Sequence record: SRR20825006_787
DNA length: 58,553 nt
Reading direction: 5' to 3' (one strand)
Numbering within the stretch: the stretch's first letter is position 1; the number at the start of each line of letters is the position of its first letter. Under the pieces are notes generated by a model, which saw only the letters and a program-made list of their open reading frames with translations, did no database searches and had not been told where the DNA came from. Shown one piece after another: positions 4,236 to 58,472 of this stretch. The translations under genes were made by a program, and so were the position numbers.

Positions 4236-5753
4236 ATGGCGAGAAAGACTTTTCCTGGGGGTATCCGCGCGCAGCTGCTCGTCCCCGTGTTGATCTTGCT
4301 CGTGGCGACGCTGGCGCTCATCGGCGCGGCGATCCTCCAGATCACCAAGCGCCAGCTGCGCGAGATGACCGAGGTACGCGCGCTCTCACAGGCGCACGTG
4401 CTCGCGAGCGAGATCTCGAGGCTCCCTCCCGAACAACGCAGCGATCTGATGGCCAGACAGCTGGGCTCCACCGGAGTCAACGGGATGGCGTGGCGCGGCG
4501 GGGGTGGCATGACTCTGGTGCACGCCGAGAACAGCGAGATAGAGGCGATGCTCACGCGCGAGGTCACCGCCAAACCAGCCAGGGACACCACGCAGCTTCA
4601 CAAGCTCGAGGAGCGGCTCTACCTGCTCGCAGAGTACCGCAGCACCCAGGCCGGAGAGCGCGCCATGGTCGCCATCGACATGTCCTCGGTTCAGGGGCAA
4701 CTCGATGGCATGCGCGATCTGATCCTGATTTATGCGCTCGTCAACGTGATCTTCCTGACCATCCTGAGCTACGCCCTGTTCACCTACCTCGTGATCAGGC
4801 CACTGCGCGTGATCGGCGTGGCCACCGAGCGCGCCGCGCAAGGCGATCTCGCGAGCCCCATCAAGCTGCTCCCGCGCAACGAGTTCGGGCTCCTCTCCAG
4901 GCAGTTCAACGCGATGCTCCAACAGCTCGAAGCGCAGCGCGAAGAGCTCCAGCTCAAGGTCGAGGCGCTCGAAGACGCCAACCTCGCCATCCACCGCGCG
5001 CAGAACTCATTGATTCGCTCCGAGAAGCTCGCCAGCGTCGGCCAGCTCGCCGCGGGCGTCGCGCACGAGGTCGGGAACCCTCTGGCGGTCGTGCTCGGTT
5101 ATGCCGAGCTGCTCGAGGATGAGGATCTCGACGATGACTTTCGCCGCGAGGTCGCCCCGAAGATCATCCGCCAGGTCGAGCGCATGCGCTCGATCATTCG
5201 CGAGCTCCTCGACTTCAGCCGCGATGACTCCCAGCAAGTCATCAGCCCCGTCGACCTCATCGCGTGCGCGGAAGAGGCGATCAGCCTGGCGAGCACCACC
5301 AAACGCACGCGCTACATCGAAATCATCAACGAGCTCCCCGAGACGATGCCTCGCGTGGGCGCCATTCACTCACAAATCGTCCAGGTCCTGATCAACCTCA
5401 TCCTCAACGCCTCGGATGCCATCCACGAGGCGGGCAAAAGGGATGGAAAGATCACACTGAGCGCGCGACAGGAAGGCTCCAGGATCTTTTTACGCGTCAC
5501 TGACAATGGCCCGGGCATCCCAGAAGAGATCATCTACAAGCTGTTCGATCCCTTCTTCACGACGAAACCCCCTGGTGAAGGAACAGGGCTCGGGCTGGCC
5601 ATCTGCGCGAGGATCATGGAGAACTTCGGAGGAGAACTCCGGCTCGTGTCGGACAACCCCGAGGGGGCATGTTTCGAGCTATGCTTGGCCACACACAAAC
5701 CAGCGGCTATCATCGACCGCGTCGCCAGAATCCACGCACAGGAAGAAGAATGA
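4236..5753 (+). CDS. HAMP-domain sensor histidine kinase (PilS2-like by synteny)
   Basis: Two TM helices, HAMP, AHEVGNP H-box, NLILNA, DNGPG, PFFTTK, GTGLGL; follows pilD as pilS2 does in Myxococcus. Confidence 0.9.
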   Translation: MARKTFPGGIRAQLLVPVLILLVATLALIGAAILQITKRQLREMTEVRALSQAHVLASEISRLPPEQRSDLMARQLGSTGVNGMAWRGGGGMTLVHAENSEIEAMLTREVTAKPARDTTQLHKLEERLYLLAEYRSTQAGERAMVAIDMSSVQGQLDGMRDLILIYALVNVIFLTILSYALFTYLVIRPLRVIGVATERAAQGDLASPIKLLPRNEFGLLSRQFNAMLQQLEAQREELQLKVEALEDANLAIHRAQNSLIRSEKLASVGQLAAGVAHEVGNPLAVVLGYAELLEDEDLDDDFRREVAPKIIRQVERMRSIIRELLDFSRDDSQQVISPVDLIACAEEAISLASTTKRTRYIEIINELPETMPRVGAIHSQIVQVLINLILNASDAIHEAGKRDGKITLSARQEGSRIFLRVTDNGPGIPEEIIYKLFDPFFTTKPPGEGTGLGLAICARIMENFGGELRLVSDNPEGACFELCLATHKPAAIIDRVARIHAQEEE

Positions 5754-31606: not shown

Positions 31607-32440
31607 TCAGGCACGCGATGAGGTCTGCGAGCGCGCCGACTGCACACAAAGCCCCGCGACGAGCTCGATCGATGTCACCGCGGACTGGATCGAGGCGAAG
31701 TTGACCTCTCCAGGTTTGACCCTGGCGCGATCGAACACACTGGCGACCTGCTCCTCGGACAACCCCATGCCCTGACACATAAAATCTGACGCGGGACCAC
31801 GGTGCCGCACACCAGGAGCGCGCGAGCGCTTGAGCCAGAAGTGACTCACGATGTGAAAGACGTGCCCCTGGCCCCAATCAAAGCGCACGGCGACCACGGG
31901 GGCGTTGTATTTGACGAGCATCTCGTGGCTCGCGGCGACGACCTCGACGCGCTCAGGATCGAGCACCTCGATGCCGTAGCTCGCCCCCTCGAGCCACCAC
32001 TGCGGCTCGACGCCGGGCACCGTCACCTCGTCCCAGAGCGTGGCGAGCATCGGCTCGACGCCGATCACCTCGTCTCCGGTCGAAGCCTTGTTCCAGCGCA
32101 CCGTGTTCGGGAACGCCTTCTCCACGACATTCTTTAGCGCCCAGTCAGACGTCACCAACCAACCCCCTGCCTCGACGAAGCTGCGAAGCTCCTCGAGGTG
32201 TTTGGCGTCATCATCGCCGGGGCAGTTCTCGAAGCAGATCCGCGCGCCCTCGAGCGAAGAGGGCGCGAAGCTGTAATCCTTCTCCAGGTGCGTGAAGACG
32301 TTCTGCACGGAGTCGAACGATCCTGCAAAAATCGCGATCTCTTCTGACGTCGTCGCATCGAGCGCCGCGAGCGCATCCGGCTTGACCATCGACCAGCGCT
32401 CGCGAACCGCGAGCGCGCCGACCTTGTATGCGTTATCCAT
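31607..32440 (-). CDS. Hypothetical protein, possible class I glutamine-amidotransferase-like fold
   Basis: GGAGG RBS; ENCPG and LRSFVEAGGWLVTSDW resemble a GATase/ThuA-like pattern (inference). Confidence 0.65.
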   Translation of the reverse strand: MDNAYKVGALAVRERWSMVKPDALAALDATTSEEIAIFAGSFDSVQNVFTHLEKDYSFAPSSLEGARICFENCPGDDDAKHLEELRSFVEAGGWLVTSDWALKNVVEKAFPNTVRWNKASTGDEVIGVEPMLATLWDEVTVPGVEPQWWLEGASYGIEVLDPERVEVVAASHEMLVKYNAPVVAVRFDWGQGHVFHIVSHFWLKRSRAPGVRHRGPASDFMCQGMGLSEEQVASVFDRARVKPGEVNFASIQSAVTSIELVAGLCVQSARSQTSSRA

Positions 32441-32480
32441 TTTATCACCTCCCGGTGAACAGCGCGCACCTCACCCATCG

Positions 32481-32540
32481 AGCGAGGGAGCGGGGAGTGA
32501 TTTTGCTCATTTGTGCAAAATCACTCCCCGCTCCCTCGCT
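32481..32540. repeat. Perfect 26-bp inverted repeat with 8-nt loop
   Basis: AGCGAGGGAGCGGGGAGTGATTTTGC (32481-32506) / GCAAAATCACTCCCCGCTCCCTCGCT (32515-32540). Confidence 0.9.
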
Positions 32541-32587
32541 GTACGAGGGGCGCTGGCGTTTTTTTTGGTGAGTCTGCCCTGGCCGCC

Positions 32588-34072
<1,485 letters not shown>

Positions 34073-34353
34073 TCACACCTCTCGTGGCGCCGCCGCAGCG
34101 AACTCCAGAGAGCATATTCGAGAAAGCCCCTCCATCGTCTGGAAAGGAGCGGGTATCAGGCGAGGTTGGTGTCTGGCCTGATGAGAAAAAGGACTCGGGC
34201 GTAGAGCGCGCTCCGTAAAGATACGCGAGGAAGACCCGCGTGTTCGAGGAGCTCGGAAAGTAGCCCGAGACAAGGCTCGTTTTGGGTATGAAGAGAGTGA
34301 TTCTCCAGGGGCGACACCGCTCGCGCGAGTCGCCTCGTTTGTGCTGTCCTTAT

Positions 34354-34429
34354 TGGCGTCGCGTGCCAGAATCGAACTGACAACCCTCCGCTTGGCAGGC
34401 GGGCGTTCTACCTATTGAACTAACGCGAC
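34354..34429 (-). tRNA. tRNA with Gly(GCC) anticodon, atypical acceptor stem, CCA encoded
   Basis: GTCGCGT-TA-GTTC..GAAC-CCCGC-CTGCCAA-GCGGA-GTCAG TTCGATT CTGGC-ACGCGAC-G-CCA. Confidence 0.75.
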
Positions 34430-34570
34430 AGGACCGAAGCTGTCGGGACACGAGAGTTTGCGCGCCACCCCCAGAGAATCACTCGAATGTTGCTCGAGAG
34501 CAGCAAAGGAGACAAGACCCCTGGGAACCAAAATCACACCGCACGAGTCGCGCGCACCGCGAGAGACCTC

Positions 34571-34643
34571 GAAGACGCGCCGGATTCGAACCGACAACCC
34601 ACGGGTTATGAGACCGTACTCTACCAATTGGAGTTAGCATCCG
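34571..34643 (-). tRNA. Degenerate tRNA-like gene, CAT anticodon
   Basis: D arm ACTC/GAGT, loop CTCATAA, T arm GTCGG TTCGAAT CCGGC; mismatches in acceptor and anticodon stems; no CCA. Confidence 0.55.
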
Positions 34644-34846
34644 GTGCTCGCGGTCAGGGCGCGGTGTGTCATCGGTCGATGACATACGTCCTCCACATCT
34701 TAGGGAGGCGACCTCTCCTTCGAGGATGGCCTGCCGTGGGGGTCTTCGACGACCTGTCTTGTCGCGGATTTATTCTGGTCGAAGGTATCGCCTCTGTCTT
34801 GATCAGTCACTCGAAGTTGGCCTCGCGCGAGTCCCAGGGGCACAGG

Positions 34847-34920
34847 ATTCATACGCAGGGATCGAACCTGCTACCTACAGCTCCCGAAGCCGTCGCTCTA
34901 TCCAGATGAGCTAGTATGTG
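34847..34920 (-). tRNA. tRNA-like gene, Pro(CGG) anticodon, frayed acceptor stem
   Basis: CACATAC/GTATGAA (top two pairs mismatched), GCTC/GAGC D arm, loop TTCGGGA, GCAGG TTCGATC CCTGC. Confidence 0.55.
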
Positions 34921-34982
34921 TGTAAGCCCCTGTTGTTTGGGCGCGAGGTTATGTTTTTGGCGCATGCCTCCATGCACCTGAG

Positions 34983-35054
34983 TACCACCAGACCGACTCG
35001 AACGATCTCCCTCTGGGCTTCAACCAGACGCTCTCCCTGTTGAGCTATGGTGGT
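34983..35054 (-). tRNA. tRNA-Phe(GAA)
   Basis: ACCACCA/TGGTGGT acceptor, TCTGG TTGAAGC CCAGA, GATCG TTCGAGT CGGTC; no CCA. Confidence 0.8.
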
Positions 35055-35084
35055 ATGGTGCGGGGAGGTATTTCCTCCCCGCGA

Positions 35085-35156
35085 TGCCGCCAGACCGACT
35101 CGAACGATCTCCTTCTGGGCTTCAACCAGGCGCTCTCCCCGTTGAGCTATGGCGGC
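35085..35156 (-). tRNA. tRNA-Phe(GAA), second copy
   Basis: GCCGCCA/TGGCGGC acceptor; nearly the same body as the neighbouring copy; no CCA. Confidence 0.8.
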
Positions 35157-35248
35157 AAACATTTTCGAGCAAGACTGCAAACACAGCCCACCCGAAAAAC
35201 ATCAAAAACTTTGATGCTTATTTTAAACAAAAGACACCGCGCGAGTTC

Positions 35249-35366
35249 GATGAGCAGTAAGACGTGCTTGCGCTCTCACCATCTGAGCTATCCCGCTACA
35301 AATAGCGGGAGCCGGACTCGAACCGACGACCTCAAGGTTATGGACCTCGACGTTTGTAGGCTCATC
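35249..35366 (-). ncRNA. Y RNA-like (YrlA-type) RNA with circularly permuted tRNA fold
   Basis: 5'-3' order: T arm (35327-35311), closed acceptor hairpin TCCCGCTA-TTTG-TAGCGGGA (35310-35291), D arm (35288-35272); ends pair as GATGAGC/GCTCATC. Confidence 0.75.
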
Positions 35367-35556
35367 ATGTCGGGGCGCGGCGCCCCTTTCGGTCTATGTA
35401 CTCTCCTCGGAGGAGCTGCCCATCATCTCGCTGTGAACGCGATGAAAGGGCAACCCCTCCGAGGTTCGGCATCCGCCCGCCCCCACTTCCCCAAGCTGCT
35501 GTTAATAACGCGGGCGGACGCCGAAGTCCTTGTATGTCTCTCTCCTCGCCCCGAAG

Positions 35557-35787
35557 CTATCCGTAGACCGCTTCGGGGCGCAGGATGATGTTTCCTGTCT
35601 CGGGCCGGTCGATGGCGTGAAACTCGAGCCTCTCGAGCTCCACATCGAGCATCTCTGCCACGCTACGTTTGATCTCGAGATCACTCGCCAGCGCCATGCT
35701 CCGACTATCCAGGCCAAGCCTCTCGGGCGCCCAGTCATACGAGCGCCCGTCGAACCGGACATGGATTTTCTGCACCTGTCGCACCAC
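35557..35787 (-). CDS. Small protein with C-terminal Gly, ubiquitin-like/beta-grasp candidate
   Basis: AGGAG RBS plus GTG start, 76 aa, beta-beta-alpha-beta-beta pattern, ends RPEAVYG; same strand as the ThiF/E1 gene. Confidence 0.68.
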   Translation of the reverse strand: MVRQVQKIHVRFDGRSYDWAPERLGLDSRSMALASDLEIKRSVAEMLDVELERLEFHAIDRPETGNIILRPEAVYG

Positions 35788-35847
35788 CTGACGCTCCTGT
35801 TCTTTTCGACCGGGCGGACCGCGTCTATCTGCGATCCTCAGGGCAAC

Positions 35848-35896
35848 AAAAAACGCCCTCGCCGACTCCTGCTTTGGCAGGAACCGGCGAGGGCGT
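35848..35896 (-). terminator. Intrinsic terminator (attenuator) upstream of the Ubl-Y RNA-TROVE operon
   Basis: ACGCCCTCGCCGGTTCCTGC-CAAA-GCAGGAGTCGGCGAGGGCGT followed by TTTTTGTTG on the minus strand. Confidence 0.82.
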
Positions 35897-35934
35897 CTTT
35901 GTCTGACTGACCCTTCGCGCTGGCCGCGTGCAGC

Positions 35935-36177
35935 TTATGTCACTGCACCGCGGCCTCGCCGGTTCCTTATATCATCCAGGATTGGACGGTCACTTCCTGG
36001 TTCGCGATGATCGCCTGTAAAGCAATCTTCACAGCCAAACCAATCGGGTGCTCCGCCTTCAAAACAACCCGCCACGCTCGTGAGCGCGGCTCGCTCCTCT
36101 CGACGCATGTTCCCCATGGGGAGCACGGGCTGGCCGTTGGCCAGCAAGAGGTTCGATATGGTCGATAAGGTGAGCAT
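35935..36177 (-). promoter_or_regulatory. Leader peptide ORF (80 aa) carrying the antiterminator strand
   Basis: AGGA RBS; 35954-35967 is the exact complement of terminator arm 35879-35892; rare-codon rich. Confidence 0.68.
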
Positions 36178-36284
36178 GATGATCGTTTTCCTGTTGTTCT
36201 TTTAAAGTTAACGCCACGCACTTCGCGGCTGTCGGGGGTAGTAACGGGGTGTTTCTCGGTTTTTATTTCGTCATATCCAAAAAA

Positions 36285-36302
36285 GTTGAAAAACTTTTCA
36301 AC
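36285..36302. promoter_or_regulatory. Palindromic operator-like site in the AT-rich divergent promoter region
   Basis: GTTGAAAA-AC-TTTTCAAC. Confidence 0.45.
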
Positions 36303-36408
36303 AAGAGGACCGCATCGATGTCACGCTTGCCGCCAAGCTCCGCATTGACTAAGGAGATCGAGAGCTTTGGTTACTTCTTTCCCCGACCTCGATCTCGAGA
36401 GGAACATC

Positions 36409-36843
36409 ATGAGCAACGCGAGCCAGGAGGACCTCCCAGGTCGCTTTATCACCACCCCCATTCAGGCGCGCTTTGTCGACACCGACGCGCTCGGGCACGT
36501 CAACAACGCCGTCCTCGTCAGCTACACCGAGATCGGTCGCGTGGACCTCTTTAACCGCGTGCGACAGAGGATGGGGAACCTGATCCTCGCGCGCGTGGCG
36601 ATCGACTTCGAGCGTCAGGTCAAGCTGCTCGATGAGATCAGCGTCAAGACTCGCATCACGAGCTTTGGCACCACGAGCATGACCGTGGAGCAATGGATCA
36701 TGGCAGGAGATGAGCGCGCAGCTCGCGCCGAGGTCGTCGTCGTCCACTTCGACTACAAGACCCAGGCCCCCTCCCCCATCCCACAAGAATGGCGCACGCA
36801 GCTGCTCGATCCTCCCGCGCCCACCCCAACAGACAACGTCTAA
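36409..36843 (+). CDS. 4HBT/YbgC-family acyl-CoA thioesterase
   Basis: RFVDTDALGHVNNA hot-dog motif. Confidence 0.9.
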   Translation: MSNASQEDLPGRFITTPIQARFVDTDALGHVNNAVLVSYTEIGRVDLFNRVRQRMGNLILARVAIDFERQVKLLDEISVKTRITSFGTTSMTVEQWIMAGDERAARAEVVVVHFDYKTQAPSPIPQEWRTQLLDPPAPTPTDNV

Positions 36844-36927
36844 CAATCGCGCCTTTGCTCACGCGCAGGTGCCCTCGGCACGATTCTTTGGCTATAATCG
36901 GCCCTCCTCACGACCCTGAAAGATGAC

Positions 36928-38697
36928 GTGATGCAAGAGCCAGAGGATCGACATACCGGGCGCTTCGCGATGCTGGCATTCGGCATCCTCGGCGCGCTCT
37001 ACGTTGCGACAGCAGCGCAGCACATCATCGGGACGGACAACGGCGAGTTTGTCTTACTCTCCGAATTGGGCGGTGTGGCGCACTCGCCGGGGTATCCGGG
37101 CTACGTGCTCTATCTGCGCGCGATGTCCTGGATACCAGGCGCGAGCGCCGCGCACAGCGCGGCGCTCGCCACGGCGCTGCTCGGTTGGCTCGCGAGCGTC
37201 ACGCTCTGGTTCGCCGCGCGCGCCTGGGGCGCTGGCAGCAAGGCCGCGCTCGCGGCGGCGTGTCTTTTTGGCCTGAACACCGAGGTCTGGCTCGTCTCGA
37301 CCCACGCCGAGGCGTTCGCCCCGAACGCCTTGCTCGCCGCGCTCATCCTCCTCTTCTCGGCCCCAGATGCGCCGCTGAAGGCCATCAAGCGCGTCGCATT
37401 GCTAGGGCTTATCGCGGGGCTCGCCATCAGCAACCACCACAGCGCCGTGTTGATGGCGCCCGTCGGGCTGTATGGCGTCGCGCAGGGGATAAACGAGGCA
37501 AGGCAGCGCGCGTGGCTCCCGCTGCTGGTGGGCGCCGGTGCACTGATTTCAGGCCTGCTCCCCTACGCGACCTTCCCGCTTTATGATCCCTCGAGCGCGT
37601 TCGTATGGGGTGATTTCCAGACCTCAGCGCAGGTGTTCTCGCACTTCTTGAGAGAGGAGTATGGCACTGGAAAGCTCGGCCCCGGCGGAGCACCCGCGCC
37701 GCTGCTCCATATCCCATTCTTTATCTCGGAGGTGATCTCGGCCTCGCTCGTCGCTGGAGCGTTATCGATCGCGCTCGGCTTCCTCGCGCTCCGAACGCGC
37801 GAGCAGACCTCGCGCATCGGCATCGCCTGCCTGGTGGGGACCTTCCTGCTGTGTGGACCGATCTTTATCGGATTGTTCAACCTCGAGCTGACCGCGACAA
37901 CCCATGATGTGATCAAGCGCTTCCACGTCCTCCCCATGGTGCCCGCGAGCATCCTCGCGGCGTGGGGCATCGACATGGCGTTCGAGCGAGGCTGGCTCAC
38001 GAACAAGAGGATGCTCGCGGCCATGCTCGCGCTGTTTATCACAGGAAGTGTGCTGGGGATTCGACATACGCGAAGCCGTTACACCCCTGCGATGGAGCTC
38101 TACGCGGAGCATGTGCTCGCCACGGCGCCAGAAGACGCCGTGATCCTTGGCACGGGCACGCATCGCTTCCTCCTGATGGAGGTCGCGCGGCGTCTCGACA
38201 AACAGCGCCCTGACATCCTCTTTCTCGAGATGCATATGCTCGGGCGCGACTGGTATGTCGAGCGCATAAAAAGCCGAAGCGGGCTCGATATTCCATTTTC
38301 GAATAGAGACCCAAAAACCGGCGCCGCGAGGATCGATACCCCGAGGTTGAGGGCTGTGTTGGAACAGAGCGGGAGACCGTTCTTTTTGACGGATCGTTTC
38401 GCGCCAAACCGCTTCACATCTGACGAACTCACGCCGCACGGTGTCCTCTGGCGCGTTGGCCCAAGCACCACCCCGGCGCCAGAACTCGTCGCAGCGAACA
38501 GGGCGCGCTTCGAGTCATTCTCCCTGCCTGCCCCCATGCCCACTGCCGAGAGCGACGGTTGGTCATGGACGCTGTACGTGGAGTATGGCCAGCTCTGGGC
38601 AAACCTCGAGGCGCGCTGCGTCGAGGCAAAGGACGACGCGTGCGCAGCGGAAGCGCGCCGATGGCGCGCGCGCTTCCCGATGACCTCACACAAGTGA
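36928..38697 (+). CDS. DUF2723/TMEM260-like membrane glycosyltransferase (GT-C)
   Basis: DNGEF..GVAHSPGYP, many TM helices, SNHH. Confidence 0.8.
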   Translation: MMQEPEDRHTGRFAMLAFGILGALYVATAAQHIIGTDNGEFVLLSELGGVAHSPGYPGYVLYLRAMSWIPGASAAHSAALATALLGWLASVTLWFAARAWGAGSKAALAAACLFGLNTEVWLVSTHAEAFAPNALLAALILLFSAPDAPLKAIKRVALLGLIAGLAISNHHSAVLMAPVGLYGVAQGINEARQRAWLPLLVGAGALISGLLPYATFPLYDPSSAFVWGDFQTSAQVFSHFLREEYGTGKLGPGGAPAPLLHIPFFISEVISASLVAGALSIALGFLALRTREQTSRIGIACLVGTFLLCGPIFIGLFNLELTATTHDVIKRFHVLPMVPASILAAWGIDMAFERGWLTNKRMLAAMLALFITGSVLGIRHTRSRYTPAMELYAEHVLATAPEDAVILGTGTHRFLLMEVARRLDKQRPDILFLEMHMLGRDWYVERIKSRSGLDIPFSNRDPKTGAARIDTPRLRAVLEQSGRPFFLTDRFAPNRFTSDELTPHGVLWRVGPSTTPAPELVAANRARFESFSLPAPMPTAESDGWSWTLYVEYGQLWANLEARCVEAKDDACAAEARRWRARFPMTSHK

Positions 38698-38799
38698 TCG
38701 TTCGAGAGGAACCTCTCGATTTTGCTCGCCATCTCCTCGAACAGGGTTACGTTCCCAGAGAACCTCGCTATCGCGAGTTGCCCAGCACGAGAGGTTGTC

Positions 38800-39840
38800 A
38801 TGAATATCCTGCTAATTGGCGGGTTAGGTTACCTTGGCTCACAGATCCTGCGCGCGTTGCGCGAGCGCGGGTTCGCCGTCACGGTCGCCACCCGCCACCC
38901 CTTCGCGCCAGCGATGACGCGCATCGACCTGCTCGATCCCGAGACATTCTCGGGCGCCGATAACTTCGACGTGGTGATCGACGCGGCCGACGCGCTGATG
39001 GCGCCTCCAGACGAGCTGATCGCCTACTGCCTGGAGCAAGGACATCTGTTTATCGAGACGACCTCCGACCCGGAGACCATCGAACGCCTGACGGATCGTT
39101 TTCATGGAACACACGAGGAGCACGCTGGCGTGCTTGTTCTCGGCGCAGGCATCTTCACGGGATTGAGCAACCTCGTGGGAGCAGCCGCGATAAGACAGCT
39201 CTCCACCAACACCACCTCATCGATCGAAGGCGGAAAGCTCGAGCTCGGGATTCGCGTCAGCCCGCTCTCGCGCGGTGGCCAGGGTATGGTCAAGTTGATC
39301 CCTCATTTGCTCGCGCTCGAGACCATTCGCTACGAGCATGGCGAGAGGGTCGCAGAACAGGGCATCAGCAAGGGCCCGAGGCTCCCCTTTTACGAAAAGC
39401 CACATGGCACTGTCGCCCTCCCGCTCGCGGAACCTCCGATGTTGGCAGCGAGCACCGGCGTCGAGAACATCGCGTGCTACATGTCGCCAGCGCCCTCGAT
39501 CCTGCGCTTTGCGTTCCTGCTCACGCCCGCATTTATCCTGACGAGCCGACCATTCACGCTGTTGCTCCTGCTCTGGTTCACGATTCTGCGCAGGCTGCTC
39601 CTGCGTTGGCGAAGCTCTCCGGTCGAAATCACAGCGAGGGCGACCTCGGAGTCGGGCCAGACACACGTCGTGAAGTTGCGCGCAGAGGATGGGATGCAGA
39701 GCGCCGGAGATGCGGTCGCGCTGCTTGTCGAAGACCTCGCGAGAGCGACCCCCGAGGCGGGCGTCTACATGATCGACGAGGTCACGCAGCTCGACGCGAT
39801 CGCCTCGAGCATGCCAGGCGTGAAGTTTGCGACAGAATAG
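38800..39840 (+). CDS. Saccharopine-dehydrogenase-like NAD(P)-binding oxidoreductase
   Basis: ILLIGGLGYLG, GAGIFTGLSNL. Confidence 0.7.
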   Translation: MNILLIGGLGYLGSQILRALRERGFAVTVATRHPFAPAMTRIDLLDPETFSGADNFDVVIDAADALMAPPDELIAYCLEQGHLFIETTSDPETIERLTDRFHGTHEEHAGVLVLGAGIFTGLSNLVGAAAIRQLSTNTTSSIEGGKLELGIRVSPLSRGGQGMVKLIPHLLALETIRYEHGERVAEQGISKGPRLPFYEKPHGTVALPLAEPPMLAASTGVENIACYMSPAPSILRFAFLLTPAFILTSRPFTLLLLLWFTILRRLLLRWRSSPVEITARATSESGQTHVVKLRAEDGMQSAGDAVALLVEDLARATPEAGVYMIDEVTQLDAIASSMPGVKFATE

Positions 39841-39849
39841 ATCTGGAAA

Positions 39850-39922
39850 GGTCGCGCGCCGGACTCGAACCGACCACCTCCTGCTTGCGGAGCAGGCGCT
39901 CTCCCTGATGAGCTAGCGCGAC
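39850..39922 (-). tRNA. Orphan tRNA-like gene, Ala(CGC) anticodon without G3:U70
   Basis: GTCGCGC/GCGCGAC acceptor, CCTGC TCCGCAA GCAGG, GTCGG TTCGAGT CCGGC; no CCA. Confidence 0.65.
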
Positions 39923-39975
39923 ATCAACGAGCGACCTTGTTAACAAGGTCGCTCGCCAGCGGTGCGACTTTACAA

Positions 39976-40455
39976 TCAAGCCTCGGAGAGCTCGATAATC
40001 GCCTCGATCTCGACCGGACTGTTCAGCGGGAGACAGGGCACGCCGACGGCCGAGCGCGCGTGACGCCCAGCCTCGCCAAAGACCTCCGCCATGAACTCCG
40101 AGGCGCCGTTGGCGACGAGGTGCTGGCTGGTGAAGTCAGCGGTGCTCGCCACGAAGACCGTGAGCTTGAGGATCTTTTTGACCTTGGAGAGATCCCCCGT
40201 GGCCGCCTTTGCTTGCGCGAGGATGTTGATCGCGCACTGACGCGCGCACGCCTGCGCCTGCTCGAGCGTGACCGAATCGCCCACGATCCCCTGCGCGACG
40301 AACTCGCCGCGATCCACAGAGATCTGCCCTGCGGTCAGCAGCAGGTTCTCGGTGCGGACCCATGGCAAATAGGATGCGGCAGGTGCGGGGGCATCGGGGA
40401 GTTCGATCCCCATCGACTTCAGGACCTCTTCCGGGTGCTTCGACTCGTTTGACAT
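39976..40455 (-). CDS. RidA/YjgF/UK114-family protein
   Basis: PAPAASY, AGQI, VANGASE, GRHARSAVGV..LPLNSPVEIE. Confidence 0.9.
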   Translation of the reverse strand: MSNESKHPEEVLKSMGIELPDAPAPAASYLPWVRTENLLLTAGQISVDRGEFVAQGIVGDSVTLEQAQACARQCAINILAQAKAATGDLSKVKKILKLTVFVASTADFTSQHLVANGASEFMAEVFGEAGRHARSAVGVPCLPLNSPVEIEAIIELSEA

Positions 40456-40690
40456 ATGCGCTCCTCTCTCGGGTTGAGTTGGGCTCTTCAAAACATTCAC
40501 TTCGGGCGCTCGCAGTCTTATCCCGGGCGCCTTTTTCGTCAAGCGATGGTGTGATGACAGCGACAGACAAGATCGCGATACGATGTTTGAAAGTGGTGAA
40601 CGAGATGCGCGAGCGCCTAAGATAGAGAGCTTATGGCCGAGGAAGGAATCTCGACGATATCTACCACGAGTGATTGCAGAGGAGAGGTTT

Positions 40691-54419: not shown

Positions 54420-55496
54420 TCACTCCTCGGCGGCTGGCTCACAGACGCCTTCGGGAGGGAAGTTATCGGGGACCTCGCACAACCCGACAATGGCGCCACA
54501 CTGATCTCCGCAGACAAGCGGGTAGTTCTCGGGTGCCTTCCCTTCGGGAACCCAATAACCGACCAGCGCTTCGGAGCCGCCTTCTTTCACCTGGGTGCGC
54601 CCGCCAATCGTGACGTAGAGACGCTCGAAGCTCAAGGTTCCTTCAAAACGATCGACGCCATTTTCATCCTTGATAACCTCGGCGTTCAGGCGCGTGGCCT
54701 CGAGCACGACATCGATCCCCATGTTGGGGAGGCGAATATCGATGGGGTCGGTCTCGAGCAAGCGGCGATCATCCTCGGTCAGTTTTACGAAACCTTCGAT
54801 GTGCACGGCCCAACCCTGCTCGGTGGGGTCGACGATCAAGTTCTCGGGGTCCACCGTTGTCTTTGGCGCGCCGTTGATCTCATCGCCCTCTCCGCCCGCC
54901 ATATAAAAGCGGCCATCCTCGAGCACCCTCACATCACTGATCAGCGTCAGGACGGCGGGGATCGGCTTGTCGATGATCGAGGAGAAGATGAAGACGCCAT
55001 CCTCGAAGGGGACGGGCCTGTCATTGAACCGACCGTTCGGGTCCCGAAACTGGATGTTGTAGTATGTGCTCACGCCTGTTTCGTAGCCATCGCGATCGGC
55101 CAGACCGCTGCGCACTTCCAAGATCAATGGCGTGCCAGGCCGACCGATTCCGGCAGGGTCAAAGGCGAGCTCGGCGCCGATAATTCCGTCATCGTCTTCG
55201 ACCGCGGTGATGCTCAACCCGTCGCAGTCAGCGTCCTCGAGGCTGCAAGAGGCGACGACAGGCTCGGCGTCCTCCGGGATCTCGAGCTCCTCATCGAGCT
55301 GGGTTTGCCAGACGCGAACCTCGAAGCTCGAAGAGTCGATCGGCTCGCTGAAGTCGAGCTTGACCGGATCACCGGCGTCAAAAGCTCCGACCTCGGGGAG
55401 GATCATCGAAACCTCCGGGGGAGGATCGTAGACAAAGTTTGAACACCCGCCCAGCGCCAAGGCCAGACTAAAAAGTGAACACGAAACGATTTTCAA
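54420..55496 (-). CDS. Lipoprotein with Ig-like domain
   Basis: Lipobox LGGC; LDFSEPID; Cys-rich C-terminal tail; start uncertain (55496, 55517 or 55529). Confidence 0.7.
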   Translation of the reverse strand: MKIVSCSLFSLALALGGCSNFVYDPPPEVSMILPEVGAFDAGDPVKLDFSEPIDSSSFEVRVWQTQLDEELEIPEDAEPVVASCSLEDADCDGLSITAVEDDDGIIGAELAFDPAGIGRPGTPLILEVRSGLADRDGYETGVSTYYNIQFRDPNGRFNDRPVPFEDGVFIFSSIIDKPIPAVLTLISDVRVLEDGRFYMAGGEGDEINGAPKTTVDPENLIVDPTEQGWAVHIEGFVKLTEDDRRLLETDPIDIRLPNMGIDVVLEATRLNAEVIKDENGVDRFEGTLSFERLYVTIGGRTQVKEGGSEALVGYWVPEGKAPENYPLVCGDQCGAIVGLCEVPDNFPPEGVCEPAAEE

Positions 55497-57322: not shown

Positions 57323-57338
57323 CGCGCTGGCAGGAGAA

Positions 57339-57412
57339 TGACCCAGGTGGGACTCGAACCCACAACATACCGATTTTAAGTCGGCTGCCTCTGCCGATTG
57401 GGCTACTGGGCC
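57339..57412 (-). tRNA. tRNA-Leu(TAA), short variable loop
   Basis: GGCCCAG/CTGGGTC, GCCGA CTTAAAA TCGGT, A73, no CCA. Confidence 0.85.
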
Positions 57413-57416
57413 ACAA

Positions 57417-57489
57417 TGCCTCGGGTGGGATTCGAACCCACAACACATCGGTTCTGAGCCGACGTCCTCTGCCGTTGGGATACCGAGGC
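57417..57489 (-). tRNA. tRNA-Leu(CAG), short variable loop
   Basis: GCCTCGG/CCGAGGC, loop CTCAGAA. Confidence 0.85.
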
Positions 57490-57496
57490 AAACAAG

Positions 57497-57582
57497 AGGG
57501 CGAGGTGGGGTTCGAACCCACAGGACATGAGAGCTCGCGATTTGCAATCGCGCCCCGCTGCCAATTACGGGACTACTCGCCC
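57497..57582 (-). tRNA. tRNA-Cys(GCA), long variable region
   Basis: GGGCGAG/CTCGCCC, loop TTGCAAA, U73. Confidence 0.8.
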
Positions 57583-57616
57583 TTGTTTGTATGCGCGCCA
57601 ACCTTTGGTTGGCGCA

Positions 57617-57689
57617 TGCCCTGGGTGGGACTCGAACCCACAACGCACCGATTCTGAGCCGGCGTCCTCTGCCATTGGGATACCAGGGC
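57617..57689 (-). tRNA. tRNA-Leu(CAG), short variable loop
   Basis: GCCCTGG/CCAGGGC, loop CTCAGAA. Confidence 0.85.
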
Positions 57690-57727
57690 TTATGTGACCT
57701 GCAACTCGGGAGAGAGCGAGCAGGTGA

Positions 57728-57802
57728 TGCCTCGAGTGGGGCTCGAACCCACAACGCACCGATCCTTAGTCGGCGTCCTCTGCCAGATTGGGATACCGAG
57801 GC
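57728..57802 (-). tRNA. tRNA-Leu(AAG), A34
   Basis: GCCTCGG/TCGAGGC, GCCGA CTAAGGA TCGGT. Confidence 0.82.
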
Positions 57803-57827
57803 AAACAGGAGCGTTCAGGCTCCCGAG

Positions 57828-57912
57828 AGGGCAAGGAGGGATTCGAACCCACAAGGCGTAAAGCTCTCGATTTGCAATCGAGCCCCGCTTCCAATTACGA
57901 GTCTACTTGCCC
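57828..57912 (-). tRNA. tRNA-Cys(GCA), long variable region
   Basis: GGGCAAG/CTTGCCC, CTCGA TTGCAAA TCGAG, U73. Confidence 0.8.
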
Positions 57913-57959
57913 CTATGTGTGGTCCTTCGCGCGAGTCGTCAGAGCTTCTCGACAAGCGA

Positions 57960-58033
57960 GAAACAACGCAGGACTCGAACCCGCATCACTCTGAGTTGCG
58001 ATCAGATGCCTCTTCCAATTGGGCTAGTATGTA
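57960..58033 (-). tRNA. Degenerate tRNA-like gene (loop TCGCAAC, GCA anticodon)
   Basis: D, anticodon and T arms intact; acceptor TACATAC/GTTGTTT poorly paired. Confidence 0.5.
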
Positions 58034-58063
58034 AGCTCCAACCGTAAGGGCGCGAAGGACCAG

Positions 58064-58136
58064 TGCCTCGGGCGGGACTCGAACCCACAACATACCGATT
58101 CTTAGCCGGCATCCTCTGCCATTGGGATACCGAGGC
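58064..58136 (-). tRNA. tRNA-Leu(AAG), A34
   Basis: GCCTCGG/CCGAGGC, loop CTAAGAA. Confidence 0.82.
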
Positions 58137-58170
58137 ATCGCTTCATGCGTTTCTGGCGCATGAACACGAG

Positions 58171-58254
58171 TGGACAGGGAGGGACTCGAACCCCCAAGGT
58201 CGAAAGACAGCTGGGTTACAACCAACCACGCTACCGATTACGTTCTACCCGTCC
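58171..58254 (-). tRNA. tRNA-Tyr(GTA)
   Basis: GGACGGG/CCTGTCC, loop TTGTAAC, variable arm, A73. Confidence 0.82.
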
Positions 58255-58280
58255 ATATGCTCGCCAACGCTGGCGAGCAG

Positions 58281-58354
58281 TACCCTGGGTGGGACTCGAA
58301 CCCACAACAAACCGCGTTTGAAACGGCTCCCTCTGCCAATTGGGGCACCAGGGC
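58281..58354 (-). tRNA. tRNA-Leu(CAA), short variable loop
   Basis: GCCCTGG/CCAGGGT, GCCGT TTCAAAC GCGGT. Confidence 0.82.
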
Positions 58355-58388
58355 ATGAGCTTGGCGACGACATCGCGACGACAAGCAG

Positions 58389-58472
58389 TGGATGGAGAGG
58401 GACTCGAACCCCCAAGGCCCGAAGGCAACTGGTTTACAGCCAGCGACGCTACCGATTACGTGCTATCCATCC
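58389..58472 (-). tRNA. tRNA-Tyr(GTA)
   Basis: GGATGGA/TCCATCC, GCTGG CTGTAAA CCAGT, variable arm. Confidence 0.85.

Follow-up and report, generated by a model that had tools for sequence, protein, structure and literature searches.

In the 58,553-nt stretch of DNA SRR20825006_787 (the window; all coordinates are positions in it), we examined the leader of a minus-strand operon that encodes a ubiquitin-like protein, a Y RNA-like RNA, tRNAs, a Ro60-like protein, and an E1-like protein. The leader, also on the minus strand, combines an open reading frame (ORF) of 80 codons, ORF80, with a strong intrinsic terminator, and the last codons of ORF80 contain a 14-nt segment, element A, that is complementary to the 5' arm of the terminator. 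Our main explanation, to which we assign a probability of roughly 40%, is that this leader is a transcription attenuator in which the ribosomes that translate ORF80 decide which of two RNA folds is adopted. We consider it fairly probable that some conditional switch between terminator and antiterminator operates here at all, and the role of the ribosome as its reader is more tentative. We infer the translation of ORF80, the timing of ribosome and polymerase, and the physiological signal.

Competing folds of the leader RNA

The terminator lies between ORF80 and orf76, the first gene of the operon (Table 1). RNAfold predicted 24 bp for 35900-35849, and a terminator consensus scan found a stem of at least 20 pairs, 14 of them G-C, followed by TTTTTTG. 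The 166 nt around it gave a folding z-score of -7.9, with 0 of 200 shuffles folding as well. Element A (AGGAACCGGCGAGG) was checked pairwise and is perfectly complementary, over 14 nt, to 35892-35879 in the terminator 5' arm. A 13-mer of this complement occurs at only these two places in the 58.5-kb window (0.20 expected). When the 280 nt upstream were shuffled 5000 times with dinucleotide composition preserved, no shuffle reached 13 nt of complementarity to the 22-nt arm, and the maximum of 12 was seen three times. The 14-nt complement is not due to chance. A first-pass annotation had described this complement, together with an 80-codon leader ORF whose stop lies 38 nt before the terminator and an inner hairpin (35922-35955) spanning the stop codon; all of these held, with the 38 nt counted from the end of the stop codon to 35897.

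To evaluate conservation, we used eight metagenome loci found through orf76, four of which (L081, L082, L083, and L084) kept the whole leader. Identity of their orf76 to that of the window was about 97% for L081 and L082, 72% for L083, and 66% for L084, and the resulting comparison of five sequences (the window and the four contigs) represents three lineages only. Two viral contigs matched by an 18-mer of the terminator 5' arm (L089, L090) were dropped, since the coding sequence that they carry is unrelated and blastn found no similarity between them and the window. The terminator is present in all five sequences, with 97.4% of alignment cells paired and no compensatory changes. Its 5' arm is the best conserved element of the leader (22/22 and 19/22 positions identical); 18 nt of the arm, GACGCCCTCGCCGGTTCC, are invariant in the five sequences, and the 3' arm is variable. 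Greater conservation of the 5' arm is as expected if this arm has two partners. The helix between element A and the 5' arm is paired in 69 of 70 alignment cells, and the two substitutions in element A both change A-U to G-U and retain the pairing. The hairpin across the stop codon (hairpin H) is paired in 93.7% of cells, likewise without compensatory changes, and the stop codon keeps its position within the hairpin loop in 5/5 sequences.

When the 3' arm was left out, the minimum free energy (MFE) structure had element A paired to the 5' arm in a three-way junction with hairpin H and a small hairpin, P3. This antiterminator junction was the MFE structure of a 125-nt piece (-63.5 kcal/mol), of the whole leader, and in all three lineages, P3 being included in each, while identity of the linker (35921-35898) was 0.83 and 0.50 between lineages. 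With the 3' arm present, the terminator was favored by 10.2, 14.4, and 15.4 kcal/mol in the three lineages. At the decision point, with polymerase at 35848 and 10 nt hidden, the two states lie within 0.5 kcal/mol of each other (-58.3 vs. -58.8 kcal/mol), and the refolding barrier along a direct path was estimated at about 13 kcal/mol. Because the energies are nearly equal and the barrier is high, the first fold formed should persist. The antiterminator also leaves just two apical terminator pairs free for nucleation.

These results agree with the mutually exclusive terminator and antiterminator proposed in the first-pass annotation, both folds being kept in 3/3 lineages. Folding with and without a masked 14-mer indicated a kinetic switch in which the antiterminator forms first unless masked, and the model predicts that naked RNA reads through. 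Since the fold of naked RNA is the antiterminator, a conserved terminator makes sense only if element A is held unpaired. The proposed direction, in which translation leads to a stop and its absence to read-through, is consistent with the folding results. A conserved anti-antiterminator was not found in the three lineages folded.

Under the mechanism that we favor, transcription would begin upstream of ORF80, somewhere upstream of 36220. In naked RNA, element A would pair with the terminator 5' arm as soon as the arm emerges, and element A, hairpin H, and the small hairpin would fold into a three-way junction. The terminator would then be blocked, with read-through into the ubiquitin-like gene, the Y RNA, the tRNAs, the Ro60-like gene, and the E1-like gene. 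During normal translation, a ribosome would occupy codons ~68-78 while the terminator is made, and the cluster ATA AGG AAC CGG CGA would slow it at that spot; element A would be covered, the terminator would form, and transcription would stop. The operon would be switched on by blocked initiation, by stalling upstream, or by a shortage of ribosomes. Within the three-way junction, hairpin H may serve as a helix for pausing or stacking, and by analogy with the trp leader it could pause polymerase and so synchronize it with the ribosome.

Table 1. Positions of the leader elements and operon features in the window (AF2, AlphaFold2; SD, Shine-Dalgarno sequence; UTR, untranslated region; vWA, von Willebrand factor A).
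Feature	Position	Strand	Remarks
Conserved AT-rich stretch, presumed promoter/operator	36301..36262	-	Upstream of ORF80; promoter presumed
5'-UTR hairpin GCCGCG-AAGUG-CGUGGC	36229..36213	-	Terminator-like scan match
ORF80, candidate leader ORF	36177..35935	-	ATG to TAA (TAA 35937-35935), 80 codons
Element A, antiterminator 5' strand	35967..35954	-	AGGAACCGGCGAGG; codons 71-75, AGG AAC CGG CGA GG
Hairpin H	35955..35922	-	13 bp, -25.2 kcal/mol; UAA stop in 7-nt loop
Small hairpin P3 of antiterminator junction	35913..35891	-	GGGU..GUC-N7-GAC-GCCC
Intrinsic terminator	35900..35848	-	5' arm 35900-35877, loop 35876-35873, 3' arm 35872-35849, T6 35853-35848
orf76, first gated gene, 76 aa	35787..35557	-	GTG start; strong SD AGGAG 6 nt before
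Structured RNA with YrlA-type permuted tRNA-like module	35529..35236	-	Between orf76 and first tRNA
Five tRNA genes: Phe-GAA x2, Pro-CGG, Met-CAU, Gly-GCC	35157..34354	-	ARAGORN, Rfam
Ro60/Rsr-like protein, 486 aa	34048..32588	-	Helical-repeat ring + vWA domain; AF2, Foldseek
p277, family not found	32440-31607	-	No Pfam or PDB sequence match
p394, family not found	31877-30693	-	No Pfam or PDB sequence match
p218, ThiF/E1-like protein	30689-30033	-	Pfam ThiF E 2e-30; PADLOC E1-E2 models

The leader reading frame and the ribosome

ORF80 is open in all five sequences (243, 243, 243, 243, and 246 nt), and the sole indel is 3 nt long and in frame. Each of the other sense frames contains two to four stops, and an alternative 84-codon frame in the window is broken in L083 and L084. 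The simulated chance of the ORF80 frame surviving in the two divergent lineages was 0.25 (52 substitutions) and 0.15 (74 substitutions). Its ATG and an upstream AGGA are kept wherever the sequence covers them. The ratio of non-synonymous to synonymous differences per site (pN/pS) was 0.12-0.24 for codons 1-16 and 0.23-0.79 for codons 54-80, and orf76 gave 0.30-0.49 across the same sequence pairs. Codons 1-16 differ between the window and L084 by six synonymous and two non-synonymous changes (Fisher p=0.0016); by this comparison, the N-terminal codons are under purifying selection. Selection on the peptide is uneven. Judging from these alignments, ORF80 is probably translated and most of its peptide unimportant, as would befit a leader ORF.

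Within ORF80, the conserved codons for DWF-C-x2-CF are covered by a separate hairpin, at 36019-36048 and nearby (codons 44-57). Conservation of synonymous sites is unusually high around these codons, and L084 has one A-U to G-C compensatory change in the hairpin (columns 337/359).

We modeled masking by the ribosome with a footprint of -15/+16 around the P site. In this model, a ribosome with its P site at any of codons 70-77 covers element A, and one with its P site at codon 66 or earlier does not. It had been proposed that complete translation masks the antiterminator. Masking was obtained for the P site at codons 70-77 but not for a ribosome at the stop codon, and for this reason the phrase needs amending: the mask would be a ribosome in transit across the last ten codons.

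The densest cluster of rare codons in ORF80 lies over element A (ATA 3%, AGG 9%, CGG 6%, and CGA 11% of the synonymous family), with the rare ATA at codon 70 directly preceding the element. Rare Arg codons are enriched in ORF80 (7/79 vs. 3.0% in reference genes, p=0.0095), and 22 of its 80 codons each account for at most 15% of their synonymous family. Rare codons over element A could provide the dwell that the mechanism calls for. The first-pass description of ORF80 as rich in rare codons stands overall, but TTT (26% of Phe) and TGT (32% of Cys) are not rare, and the codons that are truly rare are TTA, ATA, AGT, CGG, GCA, and AGG. ATA and CGA are present as listed there, but ATA occurs twice and CGA three times.

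A match between the leader codons and the tRNAs of the operon, also suggested at first, was not upheld: codons read by these tRNAs are not enriched (12/79 vs. 12.0% in reference genes, p=0.39). Phe codons number 3/79 (3.8% vs. 3.7%, p=0.77), the Pro codon CCG, read by tRNA-Pro(CGG), is absent from ORF80 (0 vs. 1.6%, p=0.64), and Cys codons number 3/79 (vs. 1.0%, p=0.04). We also looked for clustered codons for a sensed amino acid, as in attenuators of the trp/his/phe type, and found no enrichment of Phe, Gly, Pro, or Met codons in ORF80.

Evidence against the proposed attenuator, and rival explanations

Several of our results weigh against attenuation by ribosomes translating ORF80, and they are given here with the rival explanations on which they bear. 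In the five sequences, the helix between element A and the 5' arm has no compensatory change on both sides, 12 of its 14 pairs being invariant; as judged from the alignment, conservation fits the two-fold model without proving it by covariation. Six metatranscriptome runs contain part of the window, and the RNA evidence came from assembled contigs of four of them. The terminator is bridged by contigs in runs X14 (35491-36204) and X15 (35699-36191) and, with a 56-nt skip, in X18. Bridging contigs show only that the ORF80-terminator-orf76 sequence occurs in RNA libraries; since contigs cross the terminator in three of the four runs, termination was at most partial in those samples.

The lack of covariation proof and the bridging contigs both favor another explanation, which we consider rather unlikely, in which the terminator is plain and constitutively leaky. 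ORF80 or its RNA would then be a separate, highly expressed first unit, with the operon held at a fixed lower level. Terminators within operons that tune gene ratios are common, and this one is very strong (-43.4 kcal/mol). The complement of the 5' arm would have no regulatory role and could be a relic of local duplication, element A and the terminator 3' arm being direct repeats that match at 14 of 17 positions. However, the perfect 14-mer survives a divergence of ~25-30% in the surrounding ORF with only pairing-preserving changes, and the 5' arm is better conserved than the 3' arm. Because the nascent MFE structure is the antiterminator in 3/3 lineages and a barrier of 13 kcal/mol separates the two folds, an unregulated terminator would lose most of its function to the sequence upstream of it.

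The skip in the X18 contig joins 35858 to 35915 and omits 35859-35914 (the 5' arm and most of the 3' arm), with 4 nt shared at the joint. Possible origins are a jump of reverse transcriptase across the hairpin and a natural variant that lacks the terminator. Depth per contig (70 and 131 over the leader, 6-22 downstream) was not used as evidence, these being assembled contigs, and neither were the X16 contig, which ends at 35856 in this single run, and the absence of cover beyond 36220.

Other contrary results concern ORF80 as a coding sequence. Codons 17-43 have a pN/pS of about 1, and dN/dS (NG86) for the whole ORF is 0.32-0.59. The G+C content at third codon positions (GC3) is 0.58, compared with 0.77-0.83 in neighboring genes, the codon adaptation index (0.491) is below those of all 23 reference ORFs (0.502-0.76), and AGGA is located 10-11 nt from the ATG. 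A word-based search of 5.8 billion clustered proteins found only two true relatives. The profile search of 1.84 billion representatives gave seven matches, of which only two were true relatives and five were discarded as unrelated repetitive proteins. ORF80 had no match in Pfam, NCBIfam, or PADLOC and no usable match in a protein atlas; in these searches it had no homologue outside its own lineage and belonged to no protein family. Its recognition score from a protein language model was 1654, compared with 2300 typical of known families. The body of ORF80 is strongly folded as RNA (z -6.7), and 15 of the 149 consensus pairs that RNAalifold found in the leader have compensatory changes, some of them inside ORF80. 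A well-folded body with compensatory pairs makes an RNA-only function possible.

On this evidence, the ORF80 region could encode a non-coding RNA, structured and with a terminator of its own, that belongs to the Ro60/Y RNA system, the frame being incidental; we regard this as quite improbable. The strong fold, the compensatory pairs (several of them in the body of the ORF), the atypical codon usage, and the lack of protein homology would all fit, as would the neighboring region, which encodes a structured Y RNA-like RNA. On the other hand, the frame is kept in 5/5 sequences with an in-frame indel and with stops in every other sense frame, synonymous changes outnumber non-synonymous ones in codons 1-16, and the ATG and AGGA are conserved where covered. 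The RNAalifold covariation term is also slightly unfavorable overall (+1.99).

The identity of the reader is the remaining point. In the footprint model, 12 of the 14 nt of element A stay free while a ribosome is at the stop codon, and the scheme therefore depends on the timing of ribosome and polymerase. The rare codons over element A may be a mere by-product of the pairing constraint. Furthermore, the leader with ORF80 and the terminator is absent from other lineages of the operon, as described below. A real switch could instead have a reader other than the ribosome, with a protein, an RNA, or a small molecule stabilizing or preventing the junction; we consider this unlikely. Such a reader could be the Ro60-like protein, the C-terminus of the ORF80 product itself, which is rich in Arg (RNRRGRG), or a tRNA or tRNA fragment that is uncharged or damaged. 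With its closed three-way junction and a closing helix of 12-14 bp, the antiterminator is like many riboswitch aptamers, and it resembles the stem-plus-module layout of Y RNAs. A Ro60-like RNA-binding protein and a YrlA-like RNA are both products of the operon itself, and other Ro60/RNA-repair operons, according to the available part of one report, sense RNA damage via the protein activator RtcR (PMC7790460). Against a different reader, the leader matches no Rfam family, even with E relaxed to 10, the junction strands vary between lineages (0.83 and 0.50 identity in the linker), and a UGGN-type bulge is absent on inspection of the sequence. Such a reader also gives no reason for an open ORF and for a stop codon fixed in the hairpin loop in 5/5 sequences.

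At gathering score, Rfam 15 found no families in the window other than tRNA. The seven matches in 35500-36450 at E up to 10 were at chance level, mostly microRNA or small RNA models on the terminator hairpin. A T-box was ruled out, with no Rfam match and no conserved UGGN bulge.

The operon, its relatives, and known systems

Upstream of ORF80, the window and L083 share 80% identity over 36300-36178, compared with 52% in the spacer after the terminator. A sigma-70 consensus scan of 32000-40500 returned no sites. The palindrome TTGAAAA-GT-TTTTCAA at 36301-36286 lies between a divergent thioesterase gene and ORF80 and is nearly kept in L083; it may be an operator and, if so, would place a second level of control at initiation. 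The pairs of the 5'-UTR hairpin are kept in the four sequences that cover it (RNAalifold), with one G-U to A-U change. The spacer between the terminator and orf76, about 58-60 nt, is the least conserved part (0.52 and 0.36 identity), and no conserved sequence was found in it.

The product of orf76 has an invariant C-terminus (RPEAVYG), and the gene has a GC3 of 0.77. Its AF2 model has a beta-beta-alpha-beta-beta layout with a predicted local distance difference test score (pLDDT) of 87, and the best Foldseek matches are weak (E 0.2-0.8) and mostly to ubiquitin-like domains. The modeled fold suggests that this protein is probably ubiquitin-like (beta-grasp). The structured RNA downstream is highly conserved, and its module has the YrlA-type order of T arm, 7-8 bp acceptor-like hairpin, and D arm, which matches the YrlA layout in the available part of a published description (PMC4201824). 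Rfam YrlA (RF02553) matched 35335-35268 with 32.6 bits, under the gathering score of 69 (E 6.9e-5), and RNAalifold found 134 pairs over 35236-35529, 12 of them with compensatory changes. From these sequence features, the Ro60-like protein probably has its Y RNA partner in this RNA, with putative binding.

The AF2 model of the Ro60-like protein (pLDDT 73) had Ro60/Rsr/TROVE proteins as its top 12 Foldseek matches in the PDB (E 8.7e-11 to 5e-8), and its template modeling (TM) score against D. radiodurans Rsr (2nvo) was 0.62. In Pfam, this protein matched only VWA_2, below the cut-off. Both parts of the bacterial Ro60 (Rsr)/Y RNA module, the Ro60 fold and an adjacent YrlA-like RNA, are thus present. 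The tRNAs first reported for the operon are there, but it is not a tRNA array alone, as it also holds the ubiquitin-like gene, the Y RNA, and the Ro60-like and E1-like genes. We found no literature linking bacterial Ro60 to ubiquitin-like or E1 genes.

Among the tRNA genes, tRNA-Met(CAU) and tRNA-Pro(CGG), within 34572-34918, scored 29.2 and 40.1 bits and have mismatches in the acceptor or anticodon stems (ARAGORN drawing); these two may not be ordinary decoding tRNAs. A second tRNA array, also on the minus strand (57338-58472), has nine ARAGORN genes (Leu x6, Cys, Tyr x2), several of them low-scoring, and a borderline extra Rfam tRNA match at 57966-58028.

We also compared the operon with 80 loci from a genome collection (L001-L080), mostly cyanobacterial. 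Identity to the Ro60-like protein was at most 61% at every genome locus examined, and a close relative is therefore absent from the collection. A tblastn match to orf76 was found in 63 of the 80 genome loci, as well as in the eight metagenome loci, and p394, p218, and p277 gave 51, 48, and 10 tblastn alignments, respectively (counts of alignments, not of loci). ORF80 had no tblastn match in the 80 loci, where a promoter lies directly or ~445 nt upstream. Of the 63 loci with orf76, 57 carry the TrcR box, TGTAGTAT, within 700 nt upstream of the gene (0.048 expected per 700 nt), often in tandem and over the -10 region, and 51 also have a properly spaced TTGAC[AT] -35 box, as in the trn promoter of Anabaena. 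According to the available parts of two reports, this box governs a translational-stress regulon in Anabaena (PMC10272220, PMC8421152), and we infer from the motif that the cyanobacterial operons belong to the TrcR regulon. TrcR boxes upstream of the homologous operon therefore suggest that, elsewhere, a different mechanism links it to translation stress. In the window, TGTAGTAT is absent from the leader and has its sole copy at 55058. Based on this motif, the TrcR context raises the prior that the leader in the window may also sense failing translation.

The related loci showed other arrangements upstream of Ro60-like and orf76-like genes. In 57 of the 63 loci with orf76 among L001-L080, tandem copies of TGTAGTAT overlap a TTGACA-N17-TAGTAT promoter 35-620 nt upstream of the orf76 homologue. 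Most Microcoleus loci have the promoter ~445 nt upstream and a long leader, with a 68-codon ORF in L001. Of the metagenome loci, L087 has a different 56-codon ORF ending ...RRFWERG (4671-4907), and the flank of L088, only 203 nt long (1-203), contains another, different ORF; a GC-rich hairpin of 13 bp with a weak U tract is found in both. In L085 and L086, a tRNA-like T-arm element (CCTACAAACG...GGTTCGA) lies upstream, not downstream, of orf76. Complementarity equivalent to that between element A and the 5' arm was not established in the leaders of L085-L088. Ten genome loci (L001, L004, L012, L027, L029, L030, L044, L050, L054, and L076) have tRNA-like genes with odd anticodons (ARAGORN: tta "Stop", cta "Pyl", att, aaa, two-base) immediately upstream of the Ro60-like gene and on its strand. 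Instead of decoding tRNAs, these genes likely represent tRNA mimics or modules of Y RNAs.

The closest known system to the proposed attenuator is the ribosome-mediated transcriptional attenuator of bmrB-bmrCD in Bacillus subtilis, for which the available part of the report (PMC4191407) describes an experimentally shown mechanism induced by ribosome inhibitors. Both have a long leader ORF before the regulated genes (53 aa for bmrB, 80 codons for ORF80), and in both the terminator and antiterminator structures overlap the 3' part of that ORF. The logic would also be shared, with efficient translation leading to termination and impaired translation to read-through, this being predicted for ORF80. 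In bmrB, rare leader codons affect the outcome, and the terminator, antiterminator, and anti-antiterminator are described as all within the coding region, whereas ORF80 holds only the 5' strand of the antiterminator and the terminator begins 38 nt past the stop. The cargo differs as well, an ABC transporter in one case and a Ro60/Y RNA/tRNA/ubiquitin-like/E1 operon in the other. As outlined in the same part of that report, the E. coli trp leader likewise has a leader ORF, exclusive hairpins that share a strand, and a terminator before the first structural gene (PMC4191407).

Leader ORFs of classical amino-acid attenuators have 14-30 codons, compared with the 80 of ORF80. Unlike these attenuators, of which pheST/pheM is another, ORF80 has no runs of regulatory codons. 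In addition, a classical ribosome frees the antiterminator strand by stalling in an upstream segment, whereas the ribosome on ORF80 would cover that strand.

Two further systems resemble the operon in content. The TrcR regulon of Anabaena sp. PCC 7120, as far as the available excerpts describe it, covers the trn tRNA operon, rtcB, and others (PMC8421152, PMC10272220). As would be the case in the window, where such control is predicted, it places tRNA arrays and RNA-repair genes under the control of impaired translation. TrcR is a repressor acting at the promoter, while the window has an ORF-terminator leader without TGTAGTAT. The Salmonella rsr-yrlBA-rtcBA operon likewise has a Ro60 orthologue beside one or more tRNA-like Y RNAs (PMC7790460, PMC4201824). 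In the accessible portions of these accounts, it is induced by stress through RtcR, a sigma-54 activator that senses damaged tRNAs (PMC7790460), where the window has a leader terminator, and no ubiquitin-like, E1, or canonical tRNA genes are described for it.

Comparison with the cyanobacterial loci suggests, by analogy, that this operon may generally be switched on when translation fails. Induction on translation failure would point to a function in handling damaged or surplus tRNA-like RNAs, and protein tagging by the ubiquitin-like/E1 pair is possibly part of it. A more specific proposal, which we regard as somewhat doubtful, is that the leader is a cis-acting sensor of translation stress, with a rare-codon pause on the antiterminator strand, which gates an undescribed RNA quality-control operon that cyanobacteria have wired via TrcR. 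If this is true, two lineages converged on one regulatory logic through unrelated mechanisms. Our literature search found no attenuator described ahead of a bacterial Ro60/Y RNA operon, and the present one, if correct, would be the first that we have found described. It would be a simple cis element of ~330 nt by which an uncultured marine bacterium's translational state could be followed.

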